Shown here in pieces: positions 3-22,328 of a stretch of 64,000 nucleotides of DNA (within the stretch, counting starts at the first letter, position 1; each line of letters opens with the position of its first letter). The position numbers were made by a program, and so were the translations under genes. Below the pieces are notes generated by a model that did no database searches, had not been told where the DNA came from, and saw nothing but the letters and a program-made list of their open reading frames with translations. The stretch lies in the IMG/VR virus record IMGVR_UViG_3300037486_000467, positions 1-64,000 of that record. One strand, 5' to 3'. Source of the DNA: a virus.

Positions 3-128
3 AAAGGCGATCATATAAAAATGACTGTATGTACTCAGTGTGCTTTAGAAGAACAACAAAGAGAATGGGAAATAGAGAGACTACAGAATACAACATATTA
101 TGACGAAGGCTATGATGAAAATCGTTAA
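3..128 (+). CDS. 3' end of an upstream gene (partial; ...KGDHIKMTVCTQCALEEQQREWEIERLQNTTYYDEGYDENR*)
   Basis: Open frame from the window edge to TAA 126-128; CxxC; its stop lies inside the leader DNA of the next gene. Confidence 0.6.
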   Translation, partial: KGDHIKMTVCTQCALEEQQREWEIERLQNTTYYDEGYDENR

Positions 129-1497
129 AGAATATATTAATGAAAAGTTTACTGAAGATTCTGATCCTATACACGATATGGGTATCGGAATCAATAAAAA
201 ATTTATAGCACATCAACTTGTTCTAACAAACCCAGCAAATTCATATTTTGAAAATGCAGAATCATGGCCAGATAATATTTTATTAAAATATAGTGGAAGA
301 TTAGGAAACCCAGAATATATTGAGGGCTTTATGTCAAATGCAAAAAATATTAGAAAAGAAGATATTAATAATTGTTTACATGAAAGTGTAATGGCTTATG
401 AATTTGAAAATGTTAAATTATTAGTTGAAAAATATAAAGCAAATCCCAATGCTCCAAAAGTTATGGAATGCGCGTTAGCATCATTGGGAATCTTTCCTCA
501 TAGACATATAAAAGATCCAAATTTAGAAATTGCAAAATTTTTAATGAAACACGGTGGAAAAATACATTTTCAAAATGAAATAATTTTACGTGAAGCATGC
601 GCATTCGCTGATACTCAAATCATTAAATTTATATTAGATGATGGAGCTGATCCGCATGTGTTAAATGATGCCTGTTATCGAAAAGCTGCATTGTGGATGA
701 GTGCATCGCCTATAGTTATTAAAAAACAACGTCAAGCTGTAATAAATCTTTTGAATCAATACACAGACAAAAAACTAATTAAAGAATATATTAATGAAAA
801 GTTTACTGCAGATTCAGATCCAATAAAAGATTTGGGAATTGGACTCTATGTAATACATAATTTTTCTACTTATGATGACGCGTTTAATTGGCTCCATGCT
901 CATATAGCTATAATACTTGGTTCAGATGAAATTCCAGGCGATATTGTTTATCCAGCCGGACATCACAATATTTATAGATGGAAATATTACGAGATATTAA
1001 AAAAGTTCAGCGACAAATATATACGCATTAATGATAATCCTAATGCACACCTTATATATGATGTAGCAGAAAGATTAAGAAAAGAAGGATATCCCACTGA
1101 AACAGTTCTTGAAACAGTTAAAGAATCTTTATACGAAAAATTTACAGCAGATTCAGATCCAATCAGAGATTTAAAAATAGGTATTATCAGTGAAATAACT
1201 AGTGAAGTTTTGTTTCACACCGTTGAATATGATGAAGAACAAGTAAACGAAATAGAAAAATATGATCCGCATTTTGCTATGCTTATAAAAGCAGCTCAAC
1301 AACTTGTAGAAGAAGGAATAATAGAACAAGGAAGATATTATGATTGGATGGAAGACGAAGAGTTAGATCTTTATATTCGTAAATATCGAAAAGGAAGATA
1401 CGTCTATAATGCAAATCCAGGTAGTGATGGAGTAGGAGTATTCTTTTCAGAAATAAAATTGCCCAAAGTAAATAAAATTGTCTATGAAAATAGTTAA
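115..1497 (+). CDS. Tagged modular protein, 3 modules (module 1 ankyrin repeats; module 2 IPxDI family)
   Basis: Start moved to ATG 115 (MKIVKEYINEKF); three tag copies; ankyrin-like ILREACAFADTQIIKFILDDGADPH. Confidence 0.85.
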   Translation: MKIVKEYINEKFTEDSDPIHDMGIGINKKFIAHQLVLTNPANSYFENAESWPDNILLKYSGRLGNPEYIEGFMSNAKNIRKEDINNCLHESVMAYEFENVKLLVEKYKANPNAPKVMECALASLGIFPHRHIKDPNLEIAKFLMKHGGKIHFQNEIILREACAFADTQIIKFILDDGADPHVLNDACYRKAALWMSASPIVIKKQRQAVINLLNQYTDKKLIKEYINEKFTADSDPIKDLGIGLYVIHNFSTYDDAFNWLHAHIAIILGSDEIPGDIVYPAGHHNIYRWKYYEILKKFSDKYIRINDNPNAHLIYDVAERLRKEGYPTETVLETVKESLYEKFTADSDPIRDLKIGIISEITSEVLFHTVEYDEEQVNEIEKYDPHFAMLIKAAQQLVEEGIIEQGRYYDWMEDEELDLYIRKYRKGRYVYNANPGSDGVGVFFSEIKLPKVNKIVYENS

Positions 1498-1939
1498 AGA
1501 ACATATATACGAAAAGTTTACAGCAGATTCAGATCCAATATATGATATGGGAATTGGTATGAAAAAAATATATTCTCCGTTAAAAATACAGCATATATTA
1601 AATGCAATGACGCCTTTATGGAAAAGAATCGTTAGAAACGCCTTTAACGAATCTTTAGAAAATATTTATTATTTGGGAAATAGTTCAAGAGATAGTAAAG
1701 AATATTTAAAAAGACTTGTTTCGTTAACAGCTGCAGGAAGAAGAATATTTCAAAAAACTTTTACAACAGAATATCCTGATACAGGCGTGCCAGAAACAAT
1801 AACAGTTAAAATATATGAAACAGAGTTAGGAAAAATAGGAACATTTCAATATCCTGAATATGAAGAGGAGGCAACGCAATACTTAGGTTCTCTTGATATA
1901 GCTGTAGAATTACGAGCAAAAGAAAATATAAAACGTTGA
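1484..1939 (+). CDS. Tagged single-module protein
   Basis: ATG 1484 MKIVKEHIYEKFTADSDPIYDMGIG. Confidence 0.85.
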   Translation: MKIVKEHIYEKFTADSDPIYDMGIGMKKIYSPLKIQHILNAMTPLWKRIVRNAFNESLENIYYLGNSSRDSKEYLKRLVSLTAAGRRIFQKTFTTEYPDTGVPETITVKIYETELGKIGTFQYPEYEEEATQYLGSLDIAVELRAKENIKR

Positions 1940-2298
1940 AATTGGTACGAGAACATATTAACGAAAAGTTTACTTCAGATTCAGATCCTATAAAAGATAT
2001 GGGTATAGGTGGTATATCAATTGAAGAAATGGCACAAAAAACTATACGAAATAAAAAACTTAAAGGAACAGCTGGATTATATAAATGGCGTGAATATTTA
2101 AATTCTTTAGTTGGAAAAAAGATTACTGGAAAATTTGTAAAGTTTTCTTCTTTAGAAACAAGAAAAACAAATATTGATGAATATACATTTATAATACGTG
2201 ACTATTATAGCTTTTACGGCGGAACTGAAGTAGGATTTAAAGATGATAAAGAAAATAATTATGTTGCTATTCAAACTGAAAGATATGTAATTAGATGA
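1936..2298 (+). CDS. Tagged single-module protein
   Basis: TTG start, tag intact, 4-nt overlap with upstream stop. Confidence 0.85.
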   Translation: MKLVREHINEKFTSDSDPIKDMGIGGISIEEMAQKTIRNKKLKGTAGLYKWREYLNSLVGKKITGKFVKFSSLETRKTNIDEYTFIIRDYYSFYGGTEVGFKDDKENNYVAIQTERYVIR

Positions 2299-3017
2299 AA
2301 TTAGTTAAAGAATATATTAACGAAAAGTTTACTGAAGATTCAGATCCAATTTCAGATATGGAAATAGGTTTATTTACTAAATGGAGTAAATTGAAACCAG
2401 GAGATATAATATACAATAAAGATACAATCGGCGTTATTCAACATATAACAATACATAATTCCGGCACCATAGAAATAAGATATGCGCCTTTTTATAATGT
2501 CAAAGTTAATAAAGATATAGCAGAACGCAGCAAAGAATATATAAATTCTCATTATTCGCAAAGTATATATACACGCAAAGCTACTACTTGGGAGAAAAAA
2601 TTTAAAATTCTTAAACCAGGGGAAAAACTTTATGAGTATATAAACGAGAAGTTTACTGAAGATTCAGATCCTATTAAAGATATGGGCATAGGCGTATTTA
2701 ATAAACGCGATTTTGCTTCTTTAAGAAAATCATGGAAATTTATGTATGATATTGCTCCATATTTAGTAGGAATTAAAGATCAAAAAGAACTTCTTGATGT
2801 ATCCGCCGCACATTATATTAATGAAAATCATTATGAAACATTAAGTGATTATTATTTAGAATACATTACAGTAAAAGGATCATCACATGGATTATGGGCA
2901 GATTCTTTTGCAGATTTTATTAAAGAAAAAAAGAGAATAGGCGATCATAGCAAATATGGAAATACAATGGATAGTGATAATTATAGATATAGAAAAGGAC
3001 TAAGGAAAAACCTTTAG
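2295..3017 (+). CDS. Tagged 2-module protein (module 1 WxxLKxGD family)
   Basis: Two tag copies; WSKLKPGDIIYN. Confidence 0.85.
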   Translation: MKLVKEYINEKFTEDSDPISDMEIGLFTKWSKLKPGDIIYNKDTIGVIQHITIHNSGTIEIRYAPFYNVKVNKDIAERSKEYINSHYSQSIYTRKATTWEKKFKILKPGEKLYEYINEKFTEDSDPIKDMGIGVFNKRDFASLRKSWKFMYDIAPYLVGIKDQKELLDVSAAHYINENHYETLSDYYLEYITVKGSSHGLWADSFADFIKEKKRIGDHSKYGNTMDSDNYRYRKGLRKNL

Positions 3018-3025
3018 AAATATAA

Positions 3026-3547
3026 ATGAAGATAGTACAAGAACATATTAACGAAAAGTTCACTGAGGAATCTGATCCAATAAAAGATCTTAATATTGGT
3101 GTTATTGATAAAATTAATGAATGGATAGAAAAAAATATGCAAGTTAATAGGCACACATTAGATTCTGATATGAAAAAAAAATGTGAAGAAAAACCTCTAT
3201 ATATAATTAATGATAATGGAACTATCAACGTATATGGCACTGCGTGGATAAATTTTGGTTATAGCCCAGGCACTTATAGTAATTTAAATTTAATATTTCC
3301 AAAATATATTAATTTTAATATAATATATGGAAATTTTGATATGGGCCATCGCGACGTAATATCATTAAGAGGATGTCCTCAAAAAGTATATGGTTATTTT
3401 CGTTGTTCTCATAATAATTTAACTTCATTAAAGTATTGTCCTAAATGGGTAGAAGGACAATTTTATTGTGAATATAACGCAGTACAGTTTATAAAAGAAG
3501 ATGTAAAAAAATATTGTAAGCATATTGGAAAAGAAATAACACTATAA
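3026..3547 (+). CDS. Tagged protein with LRR-like repeats
   Basis: Tag plus ISLRGCPQKVYGYFRCSHNNLTSLKYCPKWVEGQFYCEYN repeats; paralogous to 43707..44351. Confidence 0.8.
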   Translation: MKIVQEHINEKFTEESDPIKDLNIGVIDKINEWIEKNMQVNRHTLDSDMKKKCEEKPLYIINDNGTINVYGTAWINFGYSPGTYSNLNLIFPKYINFNIIYGNFDMGHRDVISLRGCPQKVYGYFRCSHNNLTSLKYCPKWVEGQFYCEYNAVQFIKEDVKKYCKHIGKEITL

Positions 3548-3549
3548 TA

Positions 3550-4839
3550 ATGAAATTAGTACGAGAACATATTAACGAAATATTTACTGAAGATTCAGAT
3601 CCCATTATTGACATGAGTATAGGTCTTAAAGCTGTAAAAAACGAAATGTGGAAAACTCCATTCGGTGAATTAAATGATAAATATTTCTCAAAGTATCGCG
3701 TAAAATATACACTCGATAATTGGACCATTATTAATTGCCGCTTAATATTATGTGATAGTTTATGCGATATATTTGGATATATGACAGATGAAGAATATCA
3801 TTTAACTCCACAAGAAGCATTTAATAAAACACTTAATGATCCTAAATTTAATAGGCTCGAATATAATCGAGGCATTATTGGAACTGCTATAGATGATTCA
3901 GATAAACTAAGAGATGCTAATGAAATTAGAAGTCAAATTATAGCTGAAGTTTTATATGACAATTGGAAAATTAAAATTGATCCAGAAATTAAAAATGAAG
4001 CACTCACTGAAAAGTTTACTGTAGATTCAGATCCAATAAAGGATCTGGGCATTGGCGTTTTTGCTAAGCGTAACTTTACTGTAAGAGAAGATTTTATTAA
4101 TTTTTTAATAGACGCAATGCCAACTATTTTAGGAATGTCAGGAATACCTGAAGATATTGTTATAGAAATCGGATATTTAAATAAAAAATATTTTCATATT
4201 ATACGTGAATATCTTTTTAAATATGATATAACATTCGATAGTAAAAGTATATGTGATAACGATAGTTCGCCCGTATATTTTTGGCCAAAATTTGTTCGTA
4301 ATGAATTAATCAATAGAAAGATAGTAAAAGCACGCAGAAAAATAAAGGAATCTTTAAATGAAAAGTTTACTGAAGATTCTGATCCAATACATGATTTAGG
4401 AATAGGCGGAATCAATCTTTCAAAAGAAATATATTTATTAATAGAGAAATTTAAATTAACTAATATACATCAAATGGCATATATGCCTGAAGTAATAAAA
4501 TATTGGAAAGATGTATTAGAAAGAGTATTTTTAGATAGACAAGTAACTGGAATTTTTGCAAGAGGAAATGAAAATAGTTGGGGAGCTTTTCATAAATTGA
4601 CTACACAAGAAATTAAGAAAGTTGTTTTGTTTGCTGAAGATACGTTAACTTCTGATAATATGGCAGTTTTAGATTTTGCTTTAATTGCAGATGATCCTGG
4701 TGCATGGGAAAAAAATCTAGAAGATTCTAAACATTATCTTGAAAATCCCGATGAAACTTGGTATTATTATTCATTCGGCGATATGTTCTACAGGAAAGAT
4801 TATACACCTAAACAAAAATATACTATCTATTTGAAATGA
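3550..4839 (+). CDS. Tagged 3-module protein
   Basis: Three tag copies; module 2 ILGMSGIPEDIV (IPxDI family). Confidence 0.85.
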   Translation: MKLVREHINEIFTEDSDPIIDMSIGLKAVKNEMWKTPFGELNDKYFSKYRVKYTLDNWTIINCRLILCDSLCDIFGYMTDEEYHLTPQEAFNKTLNDPKFNRLEYNRGIIGTAIDDSDKLRDANEIRSQIIAEVLYDNWKIKIDPEIKNEALTEKFTVDSDPIKDLGIGVFAKRNFTVREDFINFLIDAMPTILGMSGIPEDIVIEIGYLNKKYFHIIREYLFKYDITFDSKSICDNDSSPVYFWPKFVRNELINRKIVKARRKIKESLNEKFTEDSDPIHDLGIGGINLSKEIYLLIEKFKLTNIHQMAYMPEVIKYWKDVLERVFLDRQVTGIFARGNENSWGAFHKLTTQEIKKVVLFAEDTLTSDNMAVLDFALIADDPGAWEKNLEDSKHYLENPDETWYYYSFGDMFYRKDYTPKQKYTIYLK

Positions 4840-5558
4840 AATTGGTAAAAGAACATATATATGAGAAGTTTATTGAAGATTCAGATCCAATAAAAGATCT
4901 GGGTATTGGAATTGAAGAAAAATTAAAACCACATTCTTTAGATAAATTAAAAGGAACAACTCCGCATTCTACAAGAATATGTATAGATATTTCAGAGTTA
5001 TTTGACTTACCATTATCTAAAATTTATCTTTTAGGATATTTTATAAATTCTGTTACTATTGATTCAAGAACTTATAATTTATTAGTTGATAAAAAAACAA
5101 AATTAATTAAAGAACTTAAAAAGGAAATTTCGGGTAATGGCAATGATTTAACACTATATCAAACGCCCTATGGAATGATAATGACTGAAAAGAATTTTAG
5201 TATAAATGTATGGGGAGATATAAACGCAGCAGCATATGTTCTTTTTAATGATGTTAACGAAAAGTTTATTGCTGATTCTGATCCTATTTCTGATTTAGGA
5301 ATAGGTGTATTTACTAAAAAAACATTCAGTACTCCAGAAGAAGCCGCTAAGTGGGTATTTAGGATTTTACCCGTTATTCTGAAAACAAACGAAATTCCTA
5401 AAAATATTTTAAATCGAGTAGGCGAATATTTTGGTAGTAGTTATTGGAATGAAATAGAAGAATATTATATGAGTTATATAAATATAATACCACATGATAT
5501 GATGGATTTTAAAAGATTTCATACAGAATTAGTAAAATTATGCAAGAATAATAAATGA
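4836..5558 (+). CDS. Tagged 2-module protein
   Basis: Two tag copies; module 2 ILKTNEIPKNIL. Confidence 0.85.
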   Translation: MKLVKEHIYEKFIEDSDPIKDLGIGIEEKLKPHSLDKLKGTTPHSTRICIDISELFDLPLSKIYLLGYFINSVTIDSRTYNLLVDKKTKLIKELKKEISGNGNDLTLYQTPYGMIMTEKNFSINVWGDINAAAYVLFNDVNEKFIADSDPISDLGIGVFTKKTFSTPEEAAKWVFRILPVILKTNEIPKNILNRVGEYFGSSYWNEIEEYYMSYINIIPHDMMDFKRFHTELVKLCKNNK

Positions 5559-6067
5559 AGTTGGTTAAAGAACATATAGACGAGAAGTTTGCTGAAGATA
5601 GCGATCCTATACGCGATATGGGTATTGGCATAATTACTAAAGCAGAACTCTACAAACTTGTTGCAACTCTTAAACAAAAAATACAAGAAATATTTCCTCA
5701 TGAGACTATAGAACTTAGAATTCTTACAGGAGCAAATATATATTTTTATGAAATACAAATAGAGTTCGTAGAAACTGGATCTTATGTATGGGATATATAT
5801 TTCGTTGCAAAAAAAGATCTAAATATAGGCGGTATATTACAAGATATGGGGTGGCATATTACTGTAACAACTAAAGATACATTTATTAATACTTATGATT
5901 TAGATACTTTAATACCTGCAATATTTAAAAAAGCTATTAAAACTAAAAAATTCGCGCAACAACGTATTGAAGAACTAACTATAAGATTAGAGAGATTAAA
6001 AAGACAAGAGAATCAGGTAGAAAAAACTATAGAAACGACAAAAATAATGCAGTCATACTTAAAATGA
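5555..6067 (+). CDS. Tagged single-module protein with C-terminal coiled coil
   Basis: Tag; heptad-like C-terminus similar to 20988..21560. Confidence 0.85.
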   Translation: MKLVKEHIDEKFAEDSDPIRDMGIGIITKAELYKLVATLKQKIQEIFPHETIELRILTGANIYFYEIQIEFVETGSYVWDIYFVAKKDLNIGGILQDMGWHITVTTKDTFINTYDLDTLIPAIFKKAIKTKKFAQQRIEELTIRLERLKRQENQVEKTIETTKIMQSYLK

Positions 6068-6414
6068 AGTTAGTTAAAGAACATATAAACGAGAAGTTTA
6101 CATTAGATTCAGATCCAATAAAAGATCTGGGTATTGGTAAGATAAATTTCAGAGATGAATTTGATAAGCAATATTTTGAGCCTTCTATTAAGTTATTTAG
6201 AAAATGGGAAAAATATGTTGATCAATTTCGAGGAAAAACAATTTGCGGCATTTTTAATGTATATGATTTTAGAGGAGATTATTCTGGAAAAAAAGGATAT
6301 GCAGAAGTAGAATTTACAAGTATAACATTGGATAGAGAAGGCACCATGAATTTAGAAACACCCGATCATAGTACATATTGTATACTTGATAGTGAAAGCT
6401 ATATTATTAAATAA
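6064..6414 (+). CDS. Tagged single-module protein
   Basis: Tag; W..Y....GK.I.G.F pattern shared with 1936..2298. Confidence 0.85.
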   Translation: MKLVKEHINEKFTLDSDPIKDLGIGKINFRDEFDKQYFEPSIKLFRKWEKYVDQFRGKTICGIFNVYDFRGDYSGKKGYAEVEFTSITLDREGTMNLETPDHSTYCILDSESYIIK

Positions 6415-6419
6415 AGAGA

Positions 6420-6788
6420 ATGAAATTAGTTAAAGAACATATATATGAAAAGTTTACCCCAGATTCAGATCCTATTGAAGATATGGGTATAGGAGAGTCT
6501 TATTTATTGAGAAAAAAATTTTATGAATTACAGAGAGAAAGCTATGTAGGTTCAATAAAACTTAGTTATGATGAAGATAAAGATTATTATTATGTAGAAA
6601 TGTATTACGCGTATAATGATTTGATTGGAGTAACTGCAAAATTTTTTAAACATATAGATCGAAAATATATTAATGGTAATTTTTTTAAAAGTATAGGTTC
6701 TTTAAGAGTTATAGCAGGTTATATAGTTAAACCAGAATATGTAAATATATTTAAAAAAGCACTTGAATTTTATAATGAAACTAGTTAG
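6420..6788 (+). CDS. Tagged single-module protein
   Basis: MKLVKEHIYEKFTPDSDPIEDMGIG. Confidence 0.85.
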   Translation: MKLVKEHIYEKFTPDSDPIEDMGIGESYLLRKKFYELQRESYVGSIKLSYDEDKDYYYVEMYYAYNDLIGVTAKFFKHIDRKYINGNFFKSIGSLRVIAGYIVKPEYVNIFKKALEFYNETS

Positions 6789-7134
6789 AGAACATATAAA
6801 CGAGAAGTTTACATCAGATTCAGATCCAATTACAGATATGGGTATTGGAATTGACGCAATATCTTTTAAATTAAAGGGTATTTTACTTTGGGGCTATATT
6901 CATAAAACAAGGAGAGAATATCGTGAATGGTTAAATGATGATCAAATAATTGAAGTTTTAAATCACCCATATAGTAAAATGTTTAATTTTGGAGAAGGTG
7001 GAATTGCAATATCTGTAAAAGAAGTATTTTTTTTACAAGAAAATCATATGGTTTATGATTCCATTCGTGCAATGCTTTCTGATAATTTAATTTACATCAA
7101 GTATGATGGCAAATATTATAATATACAAAAATGA
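6775..7134 (+). CDS. Tagged single-module protein
   Basis: Start moved to ATG 6775 (MKLVREHINE). Confidence 0.85.
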   Translation: MKLVREHINEKFTSDSDPITDMGIGIDAISFKLKGILLWGYIHKTRREYREWLNDDQIIEVLNHPYSKMFNFGEGGIAISVKEVFFLQENHMVYDSIRAMLSDNLIYIKYDGKYYNIQK

Positions 7135-7484
7135 AACTAGTTAGAGAACATATATACGAGAAATTTACTGAGCAATCTGATCCTGTACACGATCTTGGAA
7201 TAGGAATTGATGAAACAGTTGAACAATTTAAGAAGGAATTAAATGATGAATGGCCTACATTAACAGAGCGACATGAACATTTTCATTATTTTAAATCAGA
7301 ACCCAAATTCATTAGAATAGATGCGTATCCGCTTTCGCTATTAGGAGTGCAACATTTAAATCAAGCGCTTAAAAAGATTTATCCTAAATACAGAGATGTT
7401 TTAAAAATTACTCGTTTTGCTGGTTATAAAAATAATATAAGAAGAGGTAACGTTAATCAAGACGTCATTATTAAGATAAGATGA
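7131..7484 (+). CDS. Tagged single-module protein
   Basis: MKLVREHIYEKFTEQSDPVHDLGIG. Confidence 0.85.
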   Translation: MKLVREHIYEKFTEQSDPVHDLGIGIDETVEQFKKELNDEWPTLTERHEHFHYFKSEPKFIRIDAYPLSLLGVQHLNQALKKIYPKYRDVLKITRFAGYKNNIRRGNVNQDVIIKIR

Positions 7485-7837
7485 GAGCAAGACTAATATA
7501 TGAAAAGTTTACTGCAGATTCAGATCCAATACACGATTTGGGTATCGGAGTATTTAGTGTTCATAAATTTGAAAGTACAAAGGATATAGCCAAGTTTTTA
7601 GTAATTATTTTGCCAGCTATTTTAAGGACAAATGAAATTCCAGAAGATATTATACTCCATAAAAGATATCTTATGAATCCTAAATATCACGATAAAATGG
7701 ATGCGTATTTGAATACATATATTAAACTATACGATAAACATCTTGGACCTAAAGATACAAGATGGGACGTATATAATGAGTTATTTAAAATTTTATTAAA
7801 AATGGGATACTTACATAATGGAGAAGAATCTAGATGA
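7481..7837 (+). CDS. Tagged single-module protein (IPxDI family)
   Basis: Variant leader MRARLIYE; ILRTNEIPEDII. Confidence 0.85.
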   Translation: MRARLIYEKFTADSDPIHDLGIGVFSVHKFESTKDIAKFLVIILPAILRTNEIPEDIILHKRYLMNPKYHDKMDAYLNTYIKLYDKHLGPKDTRWDVYNELFKILLKMGYLHNGEESR

Positions 7838-9042
7838 AATTAGTTAGAGAACATATAAACGAGAAGTTTGCTGAAGATTCAGATCCAATAAAAGATATGG
7901 GTATTGGAATTACTGGGCCTAAAAAATTTTATAATAAAAAGGAACTTGTCGATCATATTATACATGCTCTCCCTCTTATATGTAATTCGGAAACAATTCC
8001 AGAAGATATTTTATATAGTATCGAACGAAACGATATACTTCCAGTAAACCTTTTTTATGAAATAATTAATTTTTTAGAAGAACATAATCAAGTAATGATT
8101 AGTAAAGATAAAAATTATACGTCAGTTAATTATGAACATGCAAGTGCATTTGATTTTAATTTTTCAAGATGGACAGTTGATCTTAGAGATAGATTACTAG
8201 AAATGGGATATGAGCAAAAACATAAAATTATTAAAGAACATATTAACGAGAAGTTTACCGATGATTCAGATCCTATAAGAGATCTAAGAATTGGCGCGTT
8301 TAAAAGAAAGATGACTTTTACAGATAAAGATGAATATATTTCTACATTATTATCTTTATTACCTCTTATTCTTGGAACTAAAGAAATTCCTAAAGATATT
8401 ATAGCTTCTTCTAACAATTATATATTTTCACCTTACTATCATACAATATCAGCTTACGTAGGTAATTATTTTACTTTTGAAGACAGTAAAAACGTAAAAG
8501 CATTTCATGACATTGAATGGTGTTTTCTTTTAAGAACAGAATTAAGAAGAATGGGATTTGAACATTTTACGTATAACGAAGATTTAAAATTAAATGTAAA
8601 TGAAAAGTTTTCTGGAGATTCTGATCCTATAACAGATATGGGAATTGGTACTATAGGTGCAATTAGGAATTTTTGTAAGCCATATATTAATCATATGGGT
8701 AAATCAGGCAGACAACATAAATTTAATTTAGATGTTATTGACGATTTATTGCTTATGTGTATTAAGGCGAAAAATCATGAATATGCCAAATATCTTTTAG
8801 ATCATGGCGCAGATGTACATTATGATGGTCCAAGTTCTACTCCTGGACTTGAAATTCCATTACGTTACGCATTCTTTTATAATGATATTAAAATGATAGA
8901 TTTGCTTATGAAATATGGCGCAGATATAAAAAAATCTATATATGATAATGAATTAGATATTGGAAGTCATAATACTCAAGGATTTAGAAAAACTACTATA
9001 AAACATGTATTAAATATATTACATGGTAAAATTTATAAATGA
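7834..9042 (+). CDS. Tagged 3-module protein (2 IPxDI modules plus an ankyrin module)
   Basis: Three tags; YAKYLLDHGADVH...PLRYAFFYNDIKMIDLLMKYGADI. Confidence 0.85.
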   Translation: MKLVREHINEKFAEDSDPIKDMGIGITGPKKFYNKKELVDHIIHALPLICNSETIPEDILYSIERNDILPVNLFYEIINFLEEHNQVMISKDKNYTSVNYEHASAFDFNFSRWTVDLRDRLLEMGYEQKHKIIKEHINEKFTDDSDPIRDLRIGAFKRKMTFTDKDEYISTLLSLLPLILGTKEIPKDIIASSNNYIFSPYYHTISAYVGNYFTFEDSKNVKAFHDIEWCFLLRTELRRMGFEHFTYNEDLKLNVNEKFSGDSDPITDMGIGTIGAIRNFCKPYINHMGKSGRQHKFNLDVIDDLLLMCIKAKNHEYAKYLLDHGADVHYDGPSSTPGLEIPLRYAFFYNDIKMIDLLMKYGADIKKSIYDNELDIGSHNTQGFRKTTIKHVLNILHGKIYK

Positions 9043-11522
9043 AACTAGTACAAGAACATATAAATGAAAAGTTTACATCAGAATCTGATCCAATAAAAGA
9101 TATGGGTATAGGTGTTAATGTTATTAAACTTGTTTGCGCCGCGGTATTATCAAATGATTCTACTGATTATAGAGATTTAACTCCAAAAACAATTAAAATG
9201 ATATTATCTAATTTTAGTAATTATTATGATTATAAAGAGATAGTATTTGCAGATGACGAAGATAACACCTATGGTACAGAAGATATGAATAACAAATATT
9301 TTGAATATCAAGGAAAAATATATCATATTGGAGAAGAAGAAACTTTAAACGAAAAGTTTACTGAAGATTCAGATTCTATAAAAGATATGGGTATAGGCGT
9401 GTATTCCAAAAGAGATTTTCCAGATTTACTATCTTTTCATGAATGGCTTTGTCTAGCAACACCCGTTATATGTAATATTAAAAAAGTTGAAGACATATTT
9501 AAATATGCAAATAAAAGACGCATAAATCAAACTTGTTATGATAAATTATTAGATTATAGTAATGAATATGTAACAATTAAAGGAGAACGTCTTGATAATA
9601 TAATATATCTTCAAAATTTTGTAGAATTAATTAAAGCAAAGGTTAAAGAACAAAAGAGTGTTAACGAAAAGTTTACTGAGGATTCAGATCCTATAAATGA
9701 TTTAGGCATAGGTATATTACATCGTCGCAAATTTGATACAGTTAAAGAAGCAGCAGAATTTTACGTAGAACATATAAACCTATTATCAAAAGGAATGTTT
9801 AAATCTAAAGAAGATTTAAAAGAATATCTTTCTGGAATTGGAAAAGGTAATTATTCAGAAACTAGAAGTTTGTTGCGTGCAGTTAAAAACTTTGTAGATG
9901 GATATGATGGAGAATTTAAAAACTTAGTTATTAAGGAAATAGATGAGTGGAATAAATTGCAATACGTTATAAGACTCAGAAATGCTATAAGAGAAATATT
10001 TGATTTTATAGATGAAGCGTTTACTGCAGATTCAGATCCAATCAGAGATATGGGTATTGGAATCTTTAAACGAAAAATGAATTTTACAAATCAAGAAGAA
10101 CTTGTTGATGCAATATTAACTTTAGTACCGTCTATTCTTGGAACAGATAAAATACCCGAAGATATTATTAATACTGATCATAATATTTTACTACCACATT
10201 ATTATCATACAATAAATTTATATCTTTATAAATATTTTACTTATAATAATAAGCTCGTATCTGAATCTAACACAGAATGGTGTCTTGCTTTAAGACAAAA
10301 ATTAAGAGACATAGGATTTGAACACCCTAAAAGTAGCATTGATAGATTACCAAGAGTGAATGAAAAGTTTACCGTAGATTCAGATCCTATACATGATATG
10401 GGAATTGGAGATGAGATAGAGTGGGAAAATTTAAAGGAAGGCGATATACTATACAATGATGATACTTTTATGATAGTTAAAGGAACTCCAAAAAAAGATG
10501 GCGATATATTAGAAATAATTACAATTCCATTTCCATTTGGTAATAATAAACAAGGTAGAGATACATTAGTAACTATCTTAAAAGGTAGACAACATTATGT
10601 TGATCTTTATTTAAATTCAGAACGTAGGAAGACACTTTCCAATTGGCAAAAAGAATTTAAAATTCTTCAACCACGAGAAATTAAAAAATATTTAAACGAA
10701 ACATTTACTTCAGATTCTGATCCAATACATGATTTAGGTATAGGTATATTATCAAGACTTAAACTATTTGATGTTCTTAGATGTAAAGAAAGAATAGAGG
10801 CACATCTTGAAACTGGGAAGTATAAATTTTATATTGAGCCAGGTGAATATTCTGTTATAATACAAAATATTGATTTTAAATCAAATGAAGTTGAACTTGT
10901 AGTAGCAACATATAGTCATTATCCACATCATTTTATGGAAGCAGATATACCGTATATAGGTAAAGAACATGTAAGTTTACCTATAGATAAATTCTCTGAT
11001 CACTTTGAAATCGTTAAGAGTGATGTTCTACAAGAGAAATTTACAGATGAAACTGATCCTATTGTAGATATGGGAATTGGAATGACTACTCATTTTAAAG
11101 AACTGATGAAATTATTTGGAAACGCAGATACAAAAAAATATATTTATAGCATAGTTATTGACGATTCAGAATTTATAGATTTTTGGTTTTATAGAAATAA
11201 TATTAAATTCTTACCTAAGAATGAAATTAAAGATTTATTTAAGTATGTTACAAATATTATTGATCAACTAGGATTTAGTTACATATTAGATGCCGTTAAA
11301 TTCATTGAGGGTTATTCAGGAGACGGATCGAAAGAAGAGGCGGATAATGATGAATTACCAAGAATGATAAGATTTAAAGTACATCCACAATTTCAAGAAA
11401 TATTTAAACTTGGACATTATAGAAGAAGCGCCAGCGCGTATGATTATAATTCTAATATAGATGATCAATTTTATTTTTATAGTAGTAATGATGATAACTA
11501 TCCATATAGAATAATTAGATGA
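9039..11522 (+). CDS. Tagged 7-module polyprotein
   Basis: Seven tag copies, preceded by INE/LNE/VNE/IDE/VNE/LNE/LQE. Confidence 0.9.
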   Translation: MKLVQEHINEKFTSESDPIKDMGIGVNVIKLVCAAVLSNDSTDYRDLTPKTIKMILSNFSNYYDYKEIVFADDEDNTYGTEDMNNKYFEYQGKIYHIGEEETLNEKFTEDSDSIKDMGIGVYSKRDFPDLLSFHEWLCLATPVICNIKKVEDIFKYANKRRINQTCYDKLLDYSNEYVTIKGERLDNIIYLQNFVELIKAKVKEQKSVNEKFTEDSDPINDLGIGILHRRKFDTVKEAAEFYVEHINLLSKGMFKSKEDLKEYLSGIGKGNYSETRSLLRAVKNFVDGYDGEFKNLVIKEIDEWNKLQYVIRLRNAIREIFDFIDEAFTADSDPIRDMGIGIFKRKMNFTNQEELVDAILTLVPSILGTDKIPEDIINTDHNILLPHYYHTINLYLYKYFTYNNKLVSESNTEWCLALRQKLRDIGFEHPKSSIDRLPRVNEKFTVDSDPIHDMGIGDEIEWENLKEGDILYNDDTFMIVKGTPKKDGDILEIITIPFPFGNNKQGRDTLVTILKGRQHYVDLYLNSERRKTLSNWQKEFKILQPREIKKYLNETFTSDSDPIHDLGIGILSRLKLFDVLRCKERIEAHLETGKYKFYIEPGEYSVIIQNIDFKSNEVELVVATYSHYPHHFMEADIPYIGKEHVSLPIDKFSDHFEIVKSDVLQEKFTDETDPIVDMGIGMTTHFKELMKLFGNADTKKYIYSIVIDDSEFIDFWFYRNNIKFLPKNEIKDLFKYVTNIIDQLGFSYILDAVKFIEGYSGDGSKEEADNDELPRMIRFKVHPQFQEIFKLGHYRRSASAYDYNSNIDDQFYFYSSNDDNYPYRIIR

Positions 11523-11908
11523 AGTTAGTAAGAGAACATATTAACGAGAAGTTTACTGAAGATTCAGATCCAATTCATGATTTAGGAATTGGTGGTATGT
11601 GTGCTGCCGGTTCTATTTTAAGAACTAAACGTGAAGTTCCTTGTATTAAAGACGAACCTTATTGTTGTATTAGTAAAGATGACAAAAGTACAGGTTCATA
11701 TATGATAGCGGATTCACTTTGGTTTGTAATAAGTGTTCTTTCGCGTAAAAAAGATTTTATGATCAGATTAAAAGCAATGCAAAATTTGAAACACGCTAAA
11801 TTGTACGCGAAATATGAAAGAAATGATTCTTATCCAGATTGGGTTCCATTTAATATTAAACTTTCATATAATGAATTAAAAAAATATTTTGAAATAGTTT
11901 CAACATGA
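11519..11908 (+). CDS. Tagged single-module protein (paralog of 13514..13897)
   Basis: GGMCAAGSILRTK... aligns end to end with GGMCTTGSIIKTK... Confidence 0.85.
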   Translation: MKLVREHINEKFTEDSDPIHDLGIGGMCAAGSILRTKREVPCIKDEPYCCISKDDKSTGSYMIADSLWFVISVLSRKKDFMIRLKAMQNLKHAKLYAKYERNDSYPDWVPFNIKLSYNELKKYFEIVST

Positions 11909-13527
11909 AATTAGTTAGAGAACATATTAACGAGAAGTTTACTATAGATTCAGATCCTGTACATGATTTAGATATAGGCATGAAAGCAGCGTGGGATTCT
12001 ATAAAAAGCGGTTCTATTTTGAGAATTACAAAACCAATAAATCGTTCTCACCCAAAAAATTCTTATGTTGTAGTAGAAGGTATAAATAATAGAGGCGCAG
12101 ATTATATACAATTTAGTTATTATGGATATAAAAATAAAGAAGCTTTATTAAAGCATGGAAATACAAGTTCAAAGTATCATTTTCATTATGGCTGGCACAT
12201 ATCGTTTGATTTTTTCAAAGAATATATGGAACTTGTATATCTACCAGATTTAAATGAAAAGTTTAGTAAAGATTCAGATCCGATACAAGATATGGGCATA
12301 AGCGGTATTTACATTGAAGATATAGTAAGAGAAATAAAAGATGTAGACAAACAATATGAAAACAGAATATACATTACATTTGAGGGAAATAAAGTTGCAA
12401 AAATTCAAATGGGAGTTAAAGGTTATTATGGAAAAGAAGAATTTGATTATGTAAGAAAAATACTTAAAAAAACAAATTATAATCATATTTTCCGCGGATT
12501 TCAAGTAAATCCAACATACGATAATGAATTATTGTTATATACTAAACCTGAATACCGCAATATTATTAAATATACTCATAAACATCCTGAAATTGAAAAA
12601 TATCATTATTGGTTTTATTCTGAAGAATCATTAAATGAAAAGTTTACTTCAGATTCAGATCCTATAAGTGATTTGGGTATAGGTTTAATGTCTGAAGTAC
12701 GGAAATTTTTCGCAGAATATAAAGAAGATCTTACTGTTAGCGAAAAAATAAACAAAGATTATACAGAACTTGACGAAATGCTATTACTTTGTGTTGATAA
12801 AGAGAAATATACTTATGTTGAATACCTTTTAAGTATTGGAGCGAATCCGAATACAAGTATAGGTATTCATGAAAAAGGATATTGCTCTCTTCCATTAAGA
12901 TATGCTATTTGGCATAATAATGTAGATATTGTTGAATTGCTTATAAAGTATGGAGGAGATATTGCAAAATGTGGTATAACTGATGAAAGTCATTTAGGCG
13001 AGTTTATAAATATGGGTCATTATCTAAGTGAAGAATTAAAAACTATTATTAGAAGTTCATTTAAAAATAAATCAAAAAGGATATCTAAAAATAAGGCAAA
13101 AAGTATATTTAAAAAGAAAGCAGATAGGACTGATGAAAGTATTGTTAATGAGAAGTTTACTGGAGATTCAGATCCTATACACGATTTGGGTATAGGTATG
13201 AAAGTTTTAATAGAAAAATTTCTAAGTAAATTTGAAGACGGCTTGAAATGGACTGATAGATATAAGCTACAAAAATGTATTGAGCATAAACATTACGATT
13301 TTGCAGAATATATTATATTACATAGTAAAAACTTAAAGAGTGATTATATATACATATTATCTGATTTAGCGTATCATAGAAATTGGGAAGGCATGAAATA
13401 TCTAATAAGTAAAGGCGCAAGTTTAAATGGTGCTATTAGATATGCAAAAAAATGTCATCTTGATCATACTACTCAGGGTTTATTAGATTTTAAAACATAT
13501 TGGGCAAATATAGATGAAGTTAGTTAG
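11905..13527 (+). CDS. Tagged 4-module polyprotein (modules 3-4 ankyrin-like)
   Basis: Four tags; YVEYLLSIGANPN...PLRYAIWHNNVDIVELLIKYGGDI. Confidence 0.88.
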   Translation: MKLVREHINEKFTIDSDPVHDLDIGMKAAWDSIKSGSILRITKPINRSHPKNSYVVVEGINNRGADYIQFSYYGYKNKEALLKHGNTSSKYHFHYGWHISFDFFKEYMELVYLPDLNEKFSKDSDPIQDMGISGIYIEDIVREIKDVDKQYENRIYITFEGNKVAKIQMGVKGYYGKEEFDYVRKILKKTNYNHIFRGFQVNPTYDNELLLYTKPEYRNIIKYTHKHPEIEKYHYWFYSEESLNEKFTSDSDPISDLGIGLMSEVRKFFAEYKEDLTVSEKINKDYTELDEMLLLCVDKEKYTYVEYLLSIGANPNTSIGIHEKGYCSLPLRYAIWHNNVDIVELLIKYGGDIAKCGITDESHLGEFINMGHYLSEELKTIIRSSFKNKSKRISKNKAKSIFKKKADRTDESIVNEKFTGDSDPIHDLGIGMKVLIEKFLSKFEDGLKWTDRYKLQKCIEHKHYDFAEYIILHSKNLKSDYIYILSDLAYHRNWEGMKYLISKGASLNGAIRYAKKCHLDHTTQGLLDFKTYWANIDEVS

Positions 13528-13897
13528 AGAACATATCAACGAGAAGTTTATAGAAGATAGCGATCCTATATCAGATATGGGCATCGGTGGTATGTGCACT
13601 ACTGGTTCTATTATAAAAACTAAGAATGATGTTGCTTGCACTAATAAAGATGTACCTTATTGTACTATTAGTACACGTGGTGATTCATATATGCAAGCAA
13701 ACACTTTTTGGGTTGTAACAAAATTTCGTTCAAGCGGAAAAGATTATATAATTAGAGTGAAGGGAATGGAAAATTTAAAACATGCTACATTATACGCAAA
13801 ACATAAAAGAAATAATTCTTATACAAATTGGACTCCATTTAATATTAAGCTTTCTTTTAATGAATTTAAAGAATATTTTGAAGTAGTTCCAATATGA
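13514..13897 (+). CDS. Tagged single-module protein (paralog of 11519..11908)
   Basis: Tag; shared LKHAxLYAK and WxPFNIKLSxNE. Confidence 0.85.
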   Translation: MKLVREHINEKFIEDSDPISDMGIGGMCTTGSIIKTKNDVACTNKDVPYCTISTRGDSYMQANTFWVVTKFRSSGKDYIIRVKGMENLKHATLYAKHKRNNSYTNWTPFNIKLSFNEFKEYFEVVPI

Positions 13898-15366
13898 AAT
13901 TAATACGAGAACATATCAACGAAAAGTTCACTTCAGATTCAGATCCTATATCAGATATGGGAATCGGAATACGTTCTGTAATTGAAAAAGAGCACGAAAA
14001 AATTAATGCTATGTCTCTTTCAGATGCATCATTATATCTTTTTAACAATAAAACTTATATGGCAGCGGTAATAGGTCTTAAACGAATTTTATCTAATATG
14101 TTAAATCAAAGTGTTTATGCAGAAGGAAAAGAGTTAAATGAAATAATTAATAATGCACGGCTAAATTACGGATTATCAGATTTTGGAATGGATCTTATAT
14201 TAAAATTTTTAAAACAAAAAATTAATGCTAGTGTCAAAACAAAAACTAAAAAAACTATAACAGAGAAGTTTACTGCAGATTCTGATCCAGTGAAAGATAT
14301 GGGAATTGGATTTGATCATGTACGAAATTTCGATAATCTTGTAGAAAGAACAGATTGGATTGCTAGAAATCTAGCTCATATATTAGATATGGAAGAAATT
14401 CCTAAAGACATTATTACTGATAAACATCATTATATTAATATGAAATACATAGATGCTATAACAGATTATGCTAGAAAATATCTTAGATATAGAGGAAATG
14501 TATATGAAGAAATTTATTGGATGAATTTAAATAACTCTTTAGAAGATCAAGGATACGTAAACGATTCGTATAATATCGATGAGAAGTTTACTGCTGATTC
14601 TGATCCAATACACGATTTAGGTATAGGTATGCCTGCAATATGGAAAACTTTAAGAAAGGGCGATGTATTAAGATTCAAAAGAACATTACAAATGAAAAAC
14701 TCTAGTAAGGTAGATATACCAAAAAACGTTTATCCTAAAGGAACTTATATTCTTATAAGAAAAGTTGAAAATCGTGATAATGACGAAAAGCTTGTTGGGT
14801 ATACTTATTATAAAACTACTAAAGATAATTTTCTAGAAAGCACACCTTCGCATAGTGCTGATTGGTTTTGGAATTATAAATTTTTTATTACATATTTTGA
14901 TTTTGTTAAAAAGGGAAATATAAAAGAATCTCTTAACGAAAAATTTACTGAAGATTCAGATCCTATAGTTGACTTAGGAATTGGTATAGACAATAGATAT
15001 AAAAAATGGTGCGAATATAAAGACGAAAAACCTTATTCTTATGAGTCATTTGTTACAGCTATCGATGAATTAAAATATGACTTTGTTAAACATTTGTTAA
15101 AGAAGGGATTAGATGTAGATGCAAAGCCAATGAGCAATAAATGGTCATATGGAGCACCTTTAAGATATGCAATATCAACTGGAAATACTAAAATGATAAG
15201 AATATTATTAAATGCTGGCGCTAATCCTAATTATGCTACAATAGCTGGTTGGATGAGGTTTACTAAGATACCTACACGAATTGAGAAGCTTATAAATGAT
15301 AAAATAAAAGAATGGAACGAACAACATCCTAAAGAATTTAATGAGAATAGTACGCGAACATATTAA
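13894..15366 (+). CDS. Tagged 4-module polyprotein (IPxDI, WKTLRKGD and ankyrin modules)
   Basis: Four tags; APLRYAISTGNTKMIRILLNAGANPN. Confidence 0.88.
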   Translation: MKLIREHINEKFTSDSDPISDMGIGIRSVIEKEHEKINAMSLSDASLYLFNNKTYMAAVIGLKRILSNMLNQSVYAEGKELNEIINNARLNYGLSDFGMDLILKFLKQKINASVKTKTKKTITEKFTADSDPVKDMGIGFDHVRNFDNLVERTDWIARNLAHILDMEEIPKDIITDKHHYINMKYIDAITDYARKYLRYRGNVYEEIYWMNLNNSLEDQGYVNDSYNIDEKFTADSDPIHDLGIGMPAIWKTLRKGDVLRFKRTLQMKNSSKVDIPKNVYPKGTYILIRKVENRDNDEKLVGYTYYKTTKDNFLESTPSHSADWFWNYKFFITYFDFVKKGNIKESLNEKFTEDSDPIVDLGIGIDNRYKKWCEYKDEKPYSYESFVTAIDELKYDFVKHLLKKGLDVDAKPMSNKWSYGAPLRYAISTGNTKMIRILLNAGANPNYATIAGWMRFTKIPTRIEKLINDKIKEWNEQHPKEFNENSTRTY

Positions 15367-16135
15367 CGAGAAGTTTACTAACGATTCAGATCCTATACAT
15401 GATCTTGGAATAGGAATGCCTTATATATGGAAGACATTAAAAAGAGGTGATATATTAAGATTTAAGAAGACACTACGTATGAATGGTAGTCATGAAGATA
15501 CAACAGGAAACACATATCATAAAGGAACTTATATTGTTGTATTAAGAGTTAAAGCTGAGGAAAAAGGTGAATGGGGTGATAAAGAAATTACGTATGATTA
15601 TTATAATTCTAAAAACAAAAATTTTTTAGATAATCCACCCGTAGAATCTAGTAATGATTGGACATGGGATTATGAATTTTTTAATGAATTCTTTGAATTA
15701 GTCAGACGAGATTTGAAGGAATCCCTTAATGAAAAGTTTACTGAAGATTCAGATCCTGTACATGATCTTGGAATAGGATATATACACCTAATAGAAGATA
15801 GAATAAAGAAAGCTGGTTATAAAAATTGGCCAAAAAATAGTTATCTTATCGTATGTGCAATACTTGGAGAAAACGAATATATTAAACTTTTATTAGATGA
15901 CGGATGGAATGTACATGAAGATAATGAAGCAGCTTTAAAAAATGCGATTCTTATGAATCGATACGAAACAGTAAAAATATTATTAGAAGCAGGCGCAGAT
16001 GTAAATGTTGAACCTCACCATATAGCGAGAGATGTTTATGAAAAAACAGTATTACAATACGCAAAAGAAGAGGGCGACATTAGAATAGTTAAACTTATTT
16101 TGAAGTATATAGCTAAAAGTAAATTAAATAAATAA
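15341..16135 (+). CDS. Tagged 2-module protein (WKTLKRGD module plus ankyrin module)
   Basis: Two tags; ALKNAILMNRYETVKILLEAGADVN. Confidence 0.88.
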   Translation: MRIVREHINEKFTNDSDPIHDLGIGMPYIWKTLKRGDILRFKKTLRMNGSHEDTTGNTYHKGTYIVVLRVKAEEKGEWGDKEITYDYYNSKNKNFLDNPPVESSNDWTWDYEFFNEFFELVRRDLKESLNEKFTEDSDPVHDLGIGYIHLIEDRIKKAGYKNWPKNSYLIVCAILGENEYIKLLLDDGWNVHEDNEAALKNAILMNRYETVKILLEAGADVNVEPHHIARDVYEKTVLQYAKEEGDIRIVKLILKYIAKSKLNK

Positions 16136-17214
16136 TGATAGCTAAATTTATATACGAAAAGTTTACTGCAGATTCAGATCCAATATCAGATATGGGAATT
16201 GGTATATTGTCAAGACTTAAGCCATTTGATATTCTTAAATGTATCAAAAGAATAAAAGCATATATAGAAGATCAACCACTCGTTTATTTTTTCATAGAAC
16301 CAGGCTATTATTCTGTTATAAATAGTGTTGATTGGAAAAATAGCAATAGTGTTATTTTTAAGTTAGCAACATTTGATAAACCTCCAAGACATTTTGATGC
16401 ACATATTTTTTCATATGGTGGTGTGGAAATTGTAACTATGTCTCCAAATAAGTTTTTTAAGCATTTTGAAATTGTTAAAGACATTAATATTAACGAGAAG
16501 TTTACTGAATATTCAGATCCAATAGCTGACTTAGGAATTGGCGGGATAAAGTCTTTTCTAATTAAAGAACTTCAAAGAGAAGGAGGAACATCTTCAGTTG
16601 ATTCTTCAAGATGTTATTATGGTAATTCTAGATATACAGATGAAGCTTTTGTAGTCTATAAAGTTTTATCTATTATAGTAGAAATAGATAATTATACGCC
16701 TGCTGGTATGCAAGCTGCATTTCAACAAGCTTTAGATGACCCTCATTCATATCGTTCTAAAACTAGAAAAACATTGCGCATAAATAAAGTAATTGAAGCG
16801 TTGTCTAAATTCTTTTACATAGATGTTGTTGATCCTAATAAAACTAAAAAACTTAAAGAATCTTTAAATGAAAAGTTTACTGAAGACACAGATCCAATAG
16901 CTGATCTTGGAATTGGTGGGTTGAAATCTTTTCTAATTAAAGAACTTGATAGAGAAGGACATATAACTTCAATTGATTCTTCGAAAAATTATTATGGTAC
17001 TTCTAAATATCATGATGAAGCTTTTGTAGTCTTTAAAATTTTATCTCGTATTGCAAAAAATGATGATTATACACCTGCGGGTCTGCAAAGCGCATTTAAT
17101 TCCGAATTAAGCTTTCAATATCATTTTGATCCCGAAATTAAGAAGACTTTGCACGTAGATAAAATAATCGAAGCGCTGGCTAAATTCTTTTACGTAAATG
17201 TTGTTCGTCCCTGA
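16135..17214 (+). CDS. Tagged 3-module protein (modules 2 and 3 tandemly duplicated)
   Basis: GGIKSFLIKELQREG / GGLKSFLIKELDREG. Confidence 0.88.
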   Translation: MIAKFIYEKFTADSDPISDMGIGILSRLKPFDILKCIKRIKAYIEDQPLVYFFIEPGYYSVINSVDWKNSNSVIFKLATFDKPPRHFDAHIFSYGGVEIVTMSPNKFFKHFEIVKDININEKFTEYSDPIADLGIGGIKSFLIKELQREGGTSSVDSSRCYYGNSRYTDEAFVVYKVLSIIVEIDNYTPAGMQAAFQQALDDPHSYRSKTRKTLRINKVIEALSKFFYIDVVDPNKTKKLKESLNEKFTEDTDPIADLGIGGLKSFLIKELDREGHITSIDSSKNYYGTSKYHDEAFVVFKILSRIAKNDDYTPAGLQSAFNSELSFQYHFDPEIKKTLHVDKIIEALAKFFYVNVVRP

Positions 17215-17248
17215 TAAAACTTAAGTCTCTTTTCTTCATAGAATCTTT

Positions 17249-18964: not shown

Positions 18965-18985
18965 ATAAAATAAAGTCAATCGTTC

Positions 18986-20267: not shown

Positions 20268-20276
20268 AGAAGCGCG

Positions 20277-22324: not shown

Positions 22325-22328
22325 TTCA

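Follow-up and report, generated by a model that had tools for sequence, protein, structure and literature searches.

A conserved peptide heading the small protein modules of a huge-phage clade, possibly a tag retained on cargo of the phage head

The first 64,000 bases (hereafter the window) of the 83,640-base IMG/VR virus record IMGVR_UViG_3300037486_000467 encode a family of small protein modules headed by a 15-residue peptide, whose first copy at positions 145-189 of the plus strand translates to KFTEDSDPIHDMGIG and lies immediately C-terminal to MKIVKEYINE. This peptide, hereafter the motif, is under protein-level purifying selection and is specific to one clade of huge phages. The tag and its protein family are undescribed so far and common in related huge phages. 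Compared with known systems of the capsid targeting sequence (CTS) type, the conserved peptide on the mature side of the predicted cut, the regular polyproteins and the scale are distinctive. We tentatively favour the reading, at somewhat less than even confidence, that the motif is a per-module tag which would be kept on head-packaged cargo and would bind one common phage-encoded partner in the head. The record (G+C 30%, CheckV completeness 21%) is a fragment of a phage of roughly 400 kb.

The motif was sought on both strands of the whole record with a fuzzy pattern allowing at most 7 substitutions and requiring at least 5 of 8 core residues. This yielded 57 copies, all on the plus strand and none on the minus strand, the last one ending at 43,790; with a variant at 22347-22394 that carries a one-residue insertion, the total is 58. 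An earlier note on this DNA had counted about 58 copies and placed the first at 145-189, and both statements were confirmed, the latter by translation. The 57 copies are spread over 29 open reading frames (ORFs), 29 being the first in their ORF and 28 internal, with up to 7 modules per ORF. Most of them (52 copies and the variant) lie in an array of 28 tightly coupled genes at 100-22862, whose sole interruption is a helicase gene; four more are found in ORF 33285-34751, downstream of the portal gene, and one in ORF 43707-44351. The motif family fills about a quarter of the 83.6-kb record. The copies and the array are given below, the copies having been located by the fuzzy pattern unless they are described otherwise.

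145..189 (+), motif copy 1, first copy of ORF 100-1497, by translation and fuzzy pattern
799..843 (+), internal copy
1138..1182 (+), internal copy
1514..1558 (+), N-terminal copy
1966..2010 (+), N-terminal copy
2325..2369 (+), N-terminal copy
2649..2693 (+), internal copy
3056..3100 (+), N-terminal copy
3580..3624 (+), N-terminal copy
4012..4056 (+), internal copy
4363..4407 (+), internal copy
4866..4910 (+), N-terminal copy
5262..5306 (+), internal copy
5585..5629 (+), N-terminal copy
6094..6138 (+), N-terminal copy
6450..6494 (+), N-terminal copy
6805..6849 (+), N-terminal copy
7161..7205 (+), N-terminal copy
7505..7549 (+), N-terminal copy, 8-residue leader
7864..7908 (+), N-terminal copy
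8251..8295 (+), internal copy
8605..8649 (+), internal copy
9069..9113 (+), N-terminal copy of an ORF with 7 copies
9354..9398 (+), internal copy
9669..9713 (+), internal copy
10017..10061 (+), internal copy
10365..10409 (+), internal copy
10701..10745 (+), internal copy
11037..11081 (+), internal copy
11549..11593 (+), N-terminal copy
11935..11979 (+), N-terminal copy
12259..12303 (+), internal copy
12640..12684 (+), internal copy
13153..13197 (+), internal copy
13544..13588 (+), N-terminal copy
13924..13968 (+), N-terminal copy
14266..14310 (+), internal copy
14584..14628 (+), internal copy
14941..14985 (+), internal copy
15371..15415 (+), N-terminal copy
15734..15778 (+), internal copy
16159..16203 (+), N-terminal copy, 8-residue leader
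16498..16542 (+), internal copy
16873..16917 (+), internal copy
19016..19060 (+), N-terminal copy
19465..19509 (+), N-terminal copy
19866..19910 (+), N-terminal copy
20307..20351 (+), N-terminal copy
20658..20702 (+), internal copy
21018..21062 (+), N-terminal copy
21587..21631 (+), N-terminal copy
22007..22051 (+), internal copy
22347..22394 (+), variant copy, one-residue insertion between Phe and the D-x-[IVL] core, heads an ankyrin-like module
33321..33365 (+), N-terminal copy, 12-residue leader, ORF 33285-34751 downstream of the portal gene
33738..33782 (+), internal copy
34032..34076 (+), internal copy
34374..34418 (+), internal copy
43746..43790 (+), exceptional copy, leader ends in Gln 3 residues before the motif; the ortholog in the related genome G001 is laid out alike
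100..22862 (+), array of 28 tightly coupled motif genes (52 copies and the variant), split by the helicase gene 17249-18964

With positions counted from the Lys that opens the motif, K(0), three residues are invariant in the window, namely F(+1), D(+6) and I(+13) (57/57 each). They are followed by G(+14) and D(+10) (56/57 each), P (55/57), K(0) (54/57), S (52/57) and G(+12) (50/57); I(+8) is at least 90% conserved, and the residue preceding the motif, at -1, is Glu in 56 of the 57 copies. The description of F, DP, D and GIG as nearly invariant was thus borne out, G(+12) being the lowest among them. The codons behind these residues vary. Pro is encoded by CCT (26), CCA (22), CCC (4) or CCG (3) and Gly(+14) by GGA (24), GGT (21), GGC (9) or GGG (2), and the codon choice for Pro, Gly, Ile and Ser tracks the cargo background. 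Comparison of all pairs by the Nei-Gojobori method gave proportions of synonymous and non-synonymous differences (pS and pN) of 0.577 and 0.170 for the motif, against 0.609 and 0.682 for the next 15, unrelated codons, and within the motif the identity is 0.57 at third codon positions, 0.81 at first and 0.85 at second positions. These results demonstrated that synonymous sites are saturated and replacements suppressed about four-fold, so that homogenisation at the DNA level is not supported; synonymous and non-synonymous sites are not equally conserved, and the synonymous variation that the earlier note had taken as a sign of protein-level selection has that meaning. Codon usage at the junction is odd, K(0) being AAG in 43/54 copies, N(-2) AAC in 21/37 and E(-1) GAG in 18/56, with background frequencies of 13%, 13% and 11%, respectively. 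This bias possibly comes from avoidance of A-runs or from an effect on translation.

Relatives were searched for with a profile of 30 positions (A1) built from the 57 window copies. Among 1.84 billion metagenomic cluster representatives, 1,591 proteins matched at E<=0.001 and 676 at <=1e-10, with up to 10 motif copies in a single protein, and 128 stretches at 72 loci were confirmed in IMG/VR. The complete genome G001 (405,016 bases, terminal repeats) carries 88 copies in 18 scattered clusters, and G002 and G003 carry 24 copies each. The motif was not found in Lak-C1 or LR756500.1, both of which encode S77 proteases, and among 185,579 prokaryote species genomes it occurs at two loci, both on short contigs of metagenome-assembled genomes (MAGs). 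These two contigs (L106 and L107; 1.9 and 8.4 kb, labelled Woesearchaeota and Peribacteria) are probably mis-binned phage fragments. For 10 family members, Pfam returned nothing but ankyrin repeats and sub-threshold matches and PHROGs no match. The motif profile had no match at E<=10 among 177,635 PDB sequences, and a tblastn search of 50,697 phage records with a 116-residue member had none at E<=0.01. A word-based homolog search with the 116-residue protein gave 16 proteins, none with a Pfam domain or a name; a cluster look-up of 10 relatives gave no name beyond 'hypothetical protein', and a 118-residue family-B protein gave no lead in the ESM Atlas (own model poor, pLDDT 0.40; feature matches <=0.82). 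Full-text literature searches for the strings DMGIG, DLGIG and DSDPI brought up no phage paper among the matches listed. No description of the family was found in the literature, the supplementary family tables of huge-phage surveys, which could list these genes, lying outside this search.

The anatomy of the motif and its surroundings was analysed in 525 copies from the best 150 of the 1,591 representatives, D(+6) being among the selection criteria. The residues found were I/L/V at -3 (93%), N at -2 (66%), E at -1 (96%), K at 0 (86%), F at +1 (96%), S at +5 (82%), D at +6 (100%, as a selection criterion), P at +7 (97%), I/V at +8 (98%), D at +10 (96%), M/L at +11 (99%), G at +12 (78%), I at +13 (98%) and G at +14 (98%). 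Glu is missing from -1 in 21 of the 525 copies; in 19 of these, one extra residue between Phe and Asp-Pro shifts the register, and the remaining two, in one protein, have two to three extra residues between Glu and Phe. Accordingly, Glu-(K/A/I/S)-Phe is contiguous in 523/525 copies of the relatives, in 86/88 copies of G001 and in 56/57 copies of the window. The variable positions are +2 to +4, which shift genome by genome (mostly x-D in G000, E-E in G001). In one pair of orthologs, window 43707-44351 and a G001 gene near 49774, F-T-x-T-G-D-P-V-x-D-M-G-I-G is preserved although it stands three to four residues away from Glu or without Glu, the window copy having Gln. As insertions fall inside the motif between Phe and Asp-Pro, as +2 to +4 are variable and as the orthologous pair keeps the second part off Glu, the cassette is suggested to consist of two boxes joined by a short variable spacer. 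Box 1, [ILV]-N-E followed by K-F, would be a putative cut site of the T4-type (S77) prohead protease, which cuts after Glu. Box 2, S-D-P-(I/V)-x-D-(M/L)-G-I-G, would follow after a spacer of three variable residues, +2 to +4, or of four in the insertion variants. Because of the contiguity of Glu-(K/A/I/S)-Phe, the K-F part may belong to the protease site and not to a second signal.

Splitting the proteins of the window and the relatives at the motif gave 582 modules with a median length of 124 amino acids (5-95% range 99-190), which fall into 123 unrelated cargo clusters. The biggest clusters are an ankyrin-like one (111 modules) and three unknown families (87, 60 and 57 modules). Since 123 unrelated clusters stand behind one tag, the tag cannot be part of the cargo fold. 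Every copy has cargo behind it, and only one of the 525 lies within 40 residues of a C-terminus. The uniform module size may mean that the particle can hold or release proteins only up to a certain size. With a median cargo isoelectric point of 8.5-8.7 and a net charge of about -2 for the motif, cargo charge was uninformative. Modules of the same cargo family sit in different gene contexts. The cargo of the exceptional orthologous pair belongs to cluster 4, together with that of ORF 3026-3547; it has no family match and resembles leucine-rich repeats by eye only.

The segment upstream of the motif behaves differently. A standard 10-residue leader, M/L/V-K/R-...-[ILV]-x-E with the CTS-like consensus MK-L/I-V-x-E-H/Y-I-x-E, precedes 25 of the 29 first copies. 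In these 25 copies the identity is 0.76 for the leader as well as for the motif (pN 0.114 and 0.172, respectively), so the claim that the motif is more conserved than the leader stands for all copies pooled but not for the standard N-terminal ones. Among the 28 internal copies the stretch from -10 to -4 is close to random sequence (identity 0.14, pN 0.608), whereas -3 to -1 (identity 0.64) and the motif (0.75, against 0.76 in N-terminal copies) are retained; likewise, the 370 internal copies of the relatives have a hydrophobic residue at -3 in 98% and Asn at -2 in 72%. As internal copies are as conserved as first ones although one leader would be enough for entry, box 2 must serve each module. 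Leader and motif are also separable, as had been noted before, since three window proteins have the leader only:

41769..42665 (+), lysozyme/endolysin-like protein, leader without motif
46302..47960 (+), AAA-type ATPase, leader-like start and a second LNE site, no motif, both kept in the G001 ortholog
62677..63042 (-), 121-residue ORF, leader-like start, no motif

In the G001 ortholog of the ATPase the stretch between the leader and the second LNE site has diverged. The notion of a second signal holds in so far as the motif is distinct from the leader, but the motif is nearly never uncoupled from the cut site. The exceptional pair (minus strand in G001) lies near this leader-tagged ATPase gene in both genomes (46302 in the window; 45465-47117 in G001).

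A candidate protease was found in the relatives. Peptidase_S77 (gp21-type) domains were detected in G001 and G003 at 61 bits (cut-off 27). In G001 the domain is N-terminal in a 781-residue protein (L080:10658-13003, minus strand), the rest of which is scaffold-like, with about a dozen x-N-E sites, and rich in [ILV/M/T]-N-E. The S77 domain heads long open frames of 787 (G001, L080), 595 (Lak-C1, L104) and 635 residues (LR756500.1, L105), which suggests that the protease is fused to a scaffold throughout this group of huge phages. Immediately upstream of the G001 protease gene are two motif genes, of 118 and 273 residues, and the protease gene also adjoins that of a gp23-like capsid protein of 590 residues. 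The N-terminus of this capsid protein reads ...H-A-L-N-E followed by A-A-M-G-G, that of T4 gp23 ...F-L-T-E65 followed by A-E-I-G-G, the gp23 propeptide having 65 residues (excerpt of PMC5694885); a T4-like cut site is hence predicted for the G001 capsid protein. A second gp23-like ORF of G001 has no leader. Directly downstream of the major capsid gene lies an ORF of 145 residues with collagen-like G-x-Q-G-I-T/Q repeats (L080:8273-8710, minus strand). Inside cargo, [ILV]NE is scarcer than expected (44 observed, 58.3 expected), while it is commoner in 281 other ORFs of G000 and G001 (142 observed, 101.5 expected) and [ILV]ND is raised in cargo (77 versus 58.6). The ratio of ratios between cargo and other ORFs is 0.54, about 3.6 standard errors, which fits cargo exposed to a protease that reads this site.

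In the reading that we favour, the 15 residues would be the downstream half of a two-box cassette heading each module of about 124 residues. The 10-residue leader would bring the precursor into the prohead core, as does the T4 CTS, which directs proteins there (excerpts of PMC9958956 and PMC7697877). The S77 protease would then cut single- and multi-module precursors after Glu into units of about 124 residues, and box 2 would remain at the N-terminus of each released module and act on each unit separately. Most likely it would bind one common phage partner inside the head, either at the shell interior or in the core, whereby each freed cargo would be held and handled alike. Cleavage, packaging and binding by box 2 are all proposed here on the basis of sequence. 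If box 2 serves each module, it would act at the cut or after it, and a role after the cut is favoured because box 2 is missing from other predicted substrates and because the protease family is also present in relatives that lack the motif.

Several observations weigh against this proposal. The window's record, which is 21% complete, has no match to PF03420 or PF07068 and no protease or capsid gene. The phmmer alignment of the G001 capsid protein with T4 gp23 starts at residue 89 and leaves the predicted site uncovered, and by ungapped offset the two positions are about 20 residues apart, that of G001 being the upstream one. The depletion of [ILV]NE in cargo is modest by itself (z = -1.95), and the control ORFs include the site-rich scaffold. 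Apart from ORF 33285-34751, the window array lies away from head genes, and the copies of G001 are scattered. Finally, Glu-K-Phe and box 2 are almost always contiguous, which an extended protease site would explain equally well.

The extended site is the main rival, unlikely in our judgement but one to be taken seriously. Here the 15 residues would be the P' side of the prohead-protease site, or a fixed, unfolded spacer keeping the Glu accessible where domains are closely packed, and would have no role after the cut. The near-universal run of Glu-(K/A/I/S)-Phe-...-GIG given above speaks for it, as does the rank of K(0) and F(+1) among the most conserved positions; moreover, since each polyprotein junction needs its own cut, the conservation of internal copies would be explained. 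However, no such P' sequence follows the sites predicted for the capsid protein and scaffold of G001 or for the lysozyme and ATPase, which carry the leader alone; Lak-C1 and LR756500.1 have S77 proteases without the motif, and the orthologous pair keeps box 2 away from Glu. The homologous protease of SPN3US prefers only Ser at P1', as far as the excerpt of PMC10052503 reports. A rather improbable alternative denies packaging altogether, the leader and motif being one element of a cytoplasmic multigene family in which internal copies are fusions and [ILV]-x-E is incidental. Packaging does depend on inference, the G001 genes are scattered, and no match in Pfam, PHROGs or PDB gives a function; yet the leader is random before internal copies while [ILV]-N-E is kept there, unlike in decaying fusions, and the T4 CTS-like leader has a matching protease in the relatives.

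We also consider it improbable that the motif acts after delivery in the host, either by binding a common host protein or by a Lys-Phe N-terminus that would set module lifetime in the manner of an N-degron. N-terminal Lys and Phe are destabilising in bacteria. Such a role would agree with a per-module function independent of the cargo fold, with a motif that must begin exactly at the new N-terminus, and with the many binder-type cargo families (e.g. ankyrin) expected of host-directed proteins. Nevertheless, no result obtained here ties the motif to any host protein, cellular genomes are without it except for the two short MAG contigs, and the joint shift of +2 to +4 per genome is explained at least as well by a phage partner or by recent expansion. 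Far less probable, and largely refuted, is a DNA-level site of recombination or gene conversion for module shuffling, in which the peptide would have no role. The occurrence of one cargo family in different gene contexts and the departure of the K(0), N(-2) and E(-1) codons from background would suit it, but the motif is nearly as diverged at synonymous sites as the unrelated codons behind it, its third codon positions are the least identical, and its Pro, Gly, Ile and Ser codons follow the background. Three further candidates were rejected. A double-glycine leader of the bacteriocin type does not agree with a motif that ends in G-I-G instead of G-G and always has cargo behind it; 2A-like or Asp-Pro self-cleavage was dismissed as no NPGP is present; and a packaged AAA+ unfoldase reading the tag was discarded by reasoning that the capsid offers no energy source.

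Comparison with known systems places the tag proposed here nearest to the internal proteins of T4. The leader of IPII/IPIII, a CTS cut by gp21, is MKTYQEFIAE and has M1, K2, E6, I8 and E10 (5/10 positions) in common with the leader found here; both have 10 residues and end in hydrophobic-x-Glu, I-A-E in the case of T4. Varied small cargo behind a constant leader is likewise known from T4 (excerpt of PMC3012670), and the relatives studied here have a T4-type S77 protease. However, IPII and IPIII have only A-[RS]-V in common beyond the leader, in agreement with the earlier statement that T4 internal proteins lack a shared mature N-terminal motif, whereas 15 more residues are conserved after Glu in the 57+1 copies described here. 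Moreover, T4 has three internal protein genes, whereas the window encodes 58 modules within 64 kb and single proteins of the relatives contain as many as 10; many proteins of this family are polyproteins with internal predicted cut sites. Head and ejection proteins of phiKZ-like giant phages (SPN3US gp53/gp54 etc.) resemble the family in being paralogous with conserved N-termini and in having stacked cut sites after Glu and a homologous protease, but their propeptides exceed 100 residues and are removed, and the excerpts consulted report no conserved peptide on the mature side (PMC5694885, PMC10052503). No sequence similarity to these processed head proteins was found.

A more specific version of the docking proposal, which we rate as improbable, is that box 2 would be the phage counterpart of an encapsulin cargo-loading peptide. 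Each cut module would then stay docked through its own N-terminal tag, either on the inside of the HK97-fold shell or on a core protein. According to the excerpt of PMC7925596, the core of the family 1 targeting peptide consists of two hydrophobic residues split by Gly and flanked by Gly or Asp, the native peptide of T. maritima contains D-L-G-I and the consensus L-G-I-G. The end of box 2, D-(M/L)-G-I-G, has this hydrophobic-Gly-hydrophobic core with flanking Gly/Asp, and encapsulin peptides dock cargo inside a shell of the fold class to which phage capsid proteins belong. The likeness covers only four to five residues, though, and could be chance; besides, the encapsulin peptide is C-terminal, while the motif is N-terminal or internal with cargo always after it. 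If this version held, a phage of about 400 kb would bring an ordered, addressable library of about 90 small binder proteins into the cell, and box 2 would be the first natural peptide address for tailed-phage head cargo that outlasts maturation. Polyvalent proteins (Iyer et al., 2017; excerpts of PMC5512222 and PMC7824862) also combine many unrelated domains in one polypeptide and are thought to be delivered with the DNA. In the present family, by contrast, the same cassette stands before each domain, the modules are small and uniform, and Pfam detected no embedded protease or enzymatic domain in 10 members. Demarcation motifs of polymorphic toxins, such as VENN of CdiA and DPxGL of Rhs, are short constant peptides before a swappable variable domain. 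They differ in being C-terminal to a large constant region and linked to secretion, with no capsid protease site.

How internal proteins of phage heads are placed, retained and released is unresolved even for T4, for which a 2023 review of the head states that what localises proteins in the core 'remains mysterious' (excerpt of PMC9958956). The clade described here offers a natural experiment: the leader is found both alone and together with a second conserved peptide, the same cassette precedes hundreds of unrelated cargos, and predicted cut sites recur regularly in the polyproteins. Should box 2 serve for docking or handling, it would be a portable address for loading proteins into large capsids and would explain how huge phages can deliver a large repertoire of small proteins. 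If it is no more than part of an extended protease site, a large undescribed protein family of huge phages (1,591 clusters at 50% identity) still remains, which would take about 8% of the 405-kb genome, as estimated from 88 modules of about 124 residues.

Other features of the record concern its origin and gene organisation. The portal protein marks the record as phage and shares about 40% identity with its counterparts in Lak megaphages and in LR756500.1, a record of 462 kb:

30417..32210 (+), portal protein, T4/Lak type

Stop-codon recoding of the Lak type was ruled out, since all three stops are in use and long conserved genes are open under code 11. In the array, 16 of the 28 genes stop with TGA, and 15 of these TGA codons overlap the next start codon by 4 bases (ATGA; TTGA at 1936), while TAA is the stop of 21 of the 24 listed genes outside the array. 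The minus strand at 51727-61347 carries an ORF of 3,206 residues, with several long ORFs inside it on the opposite strand.

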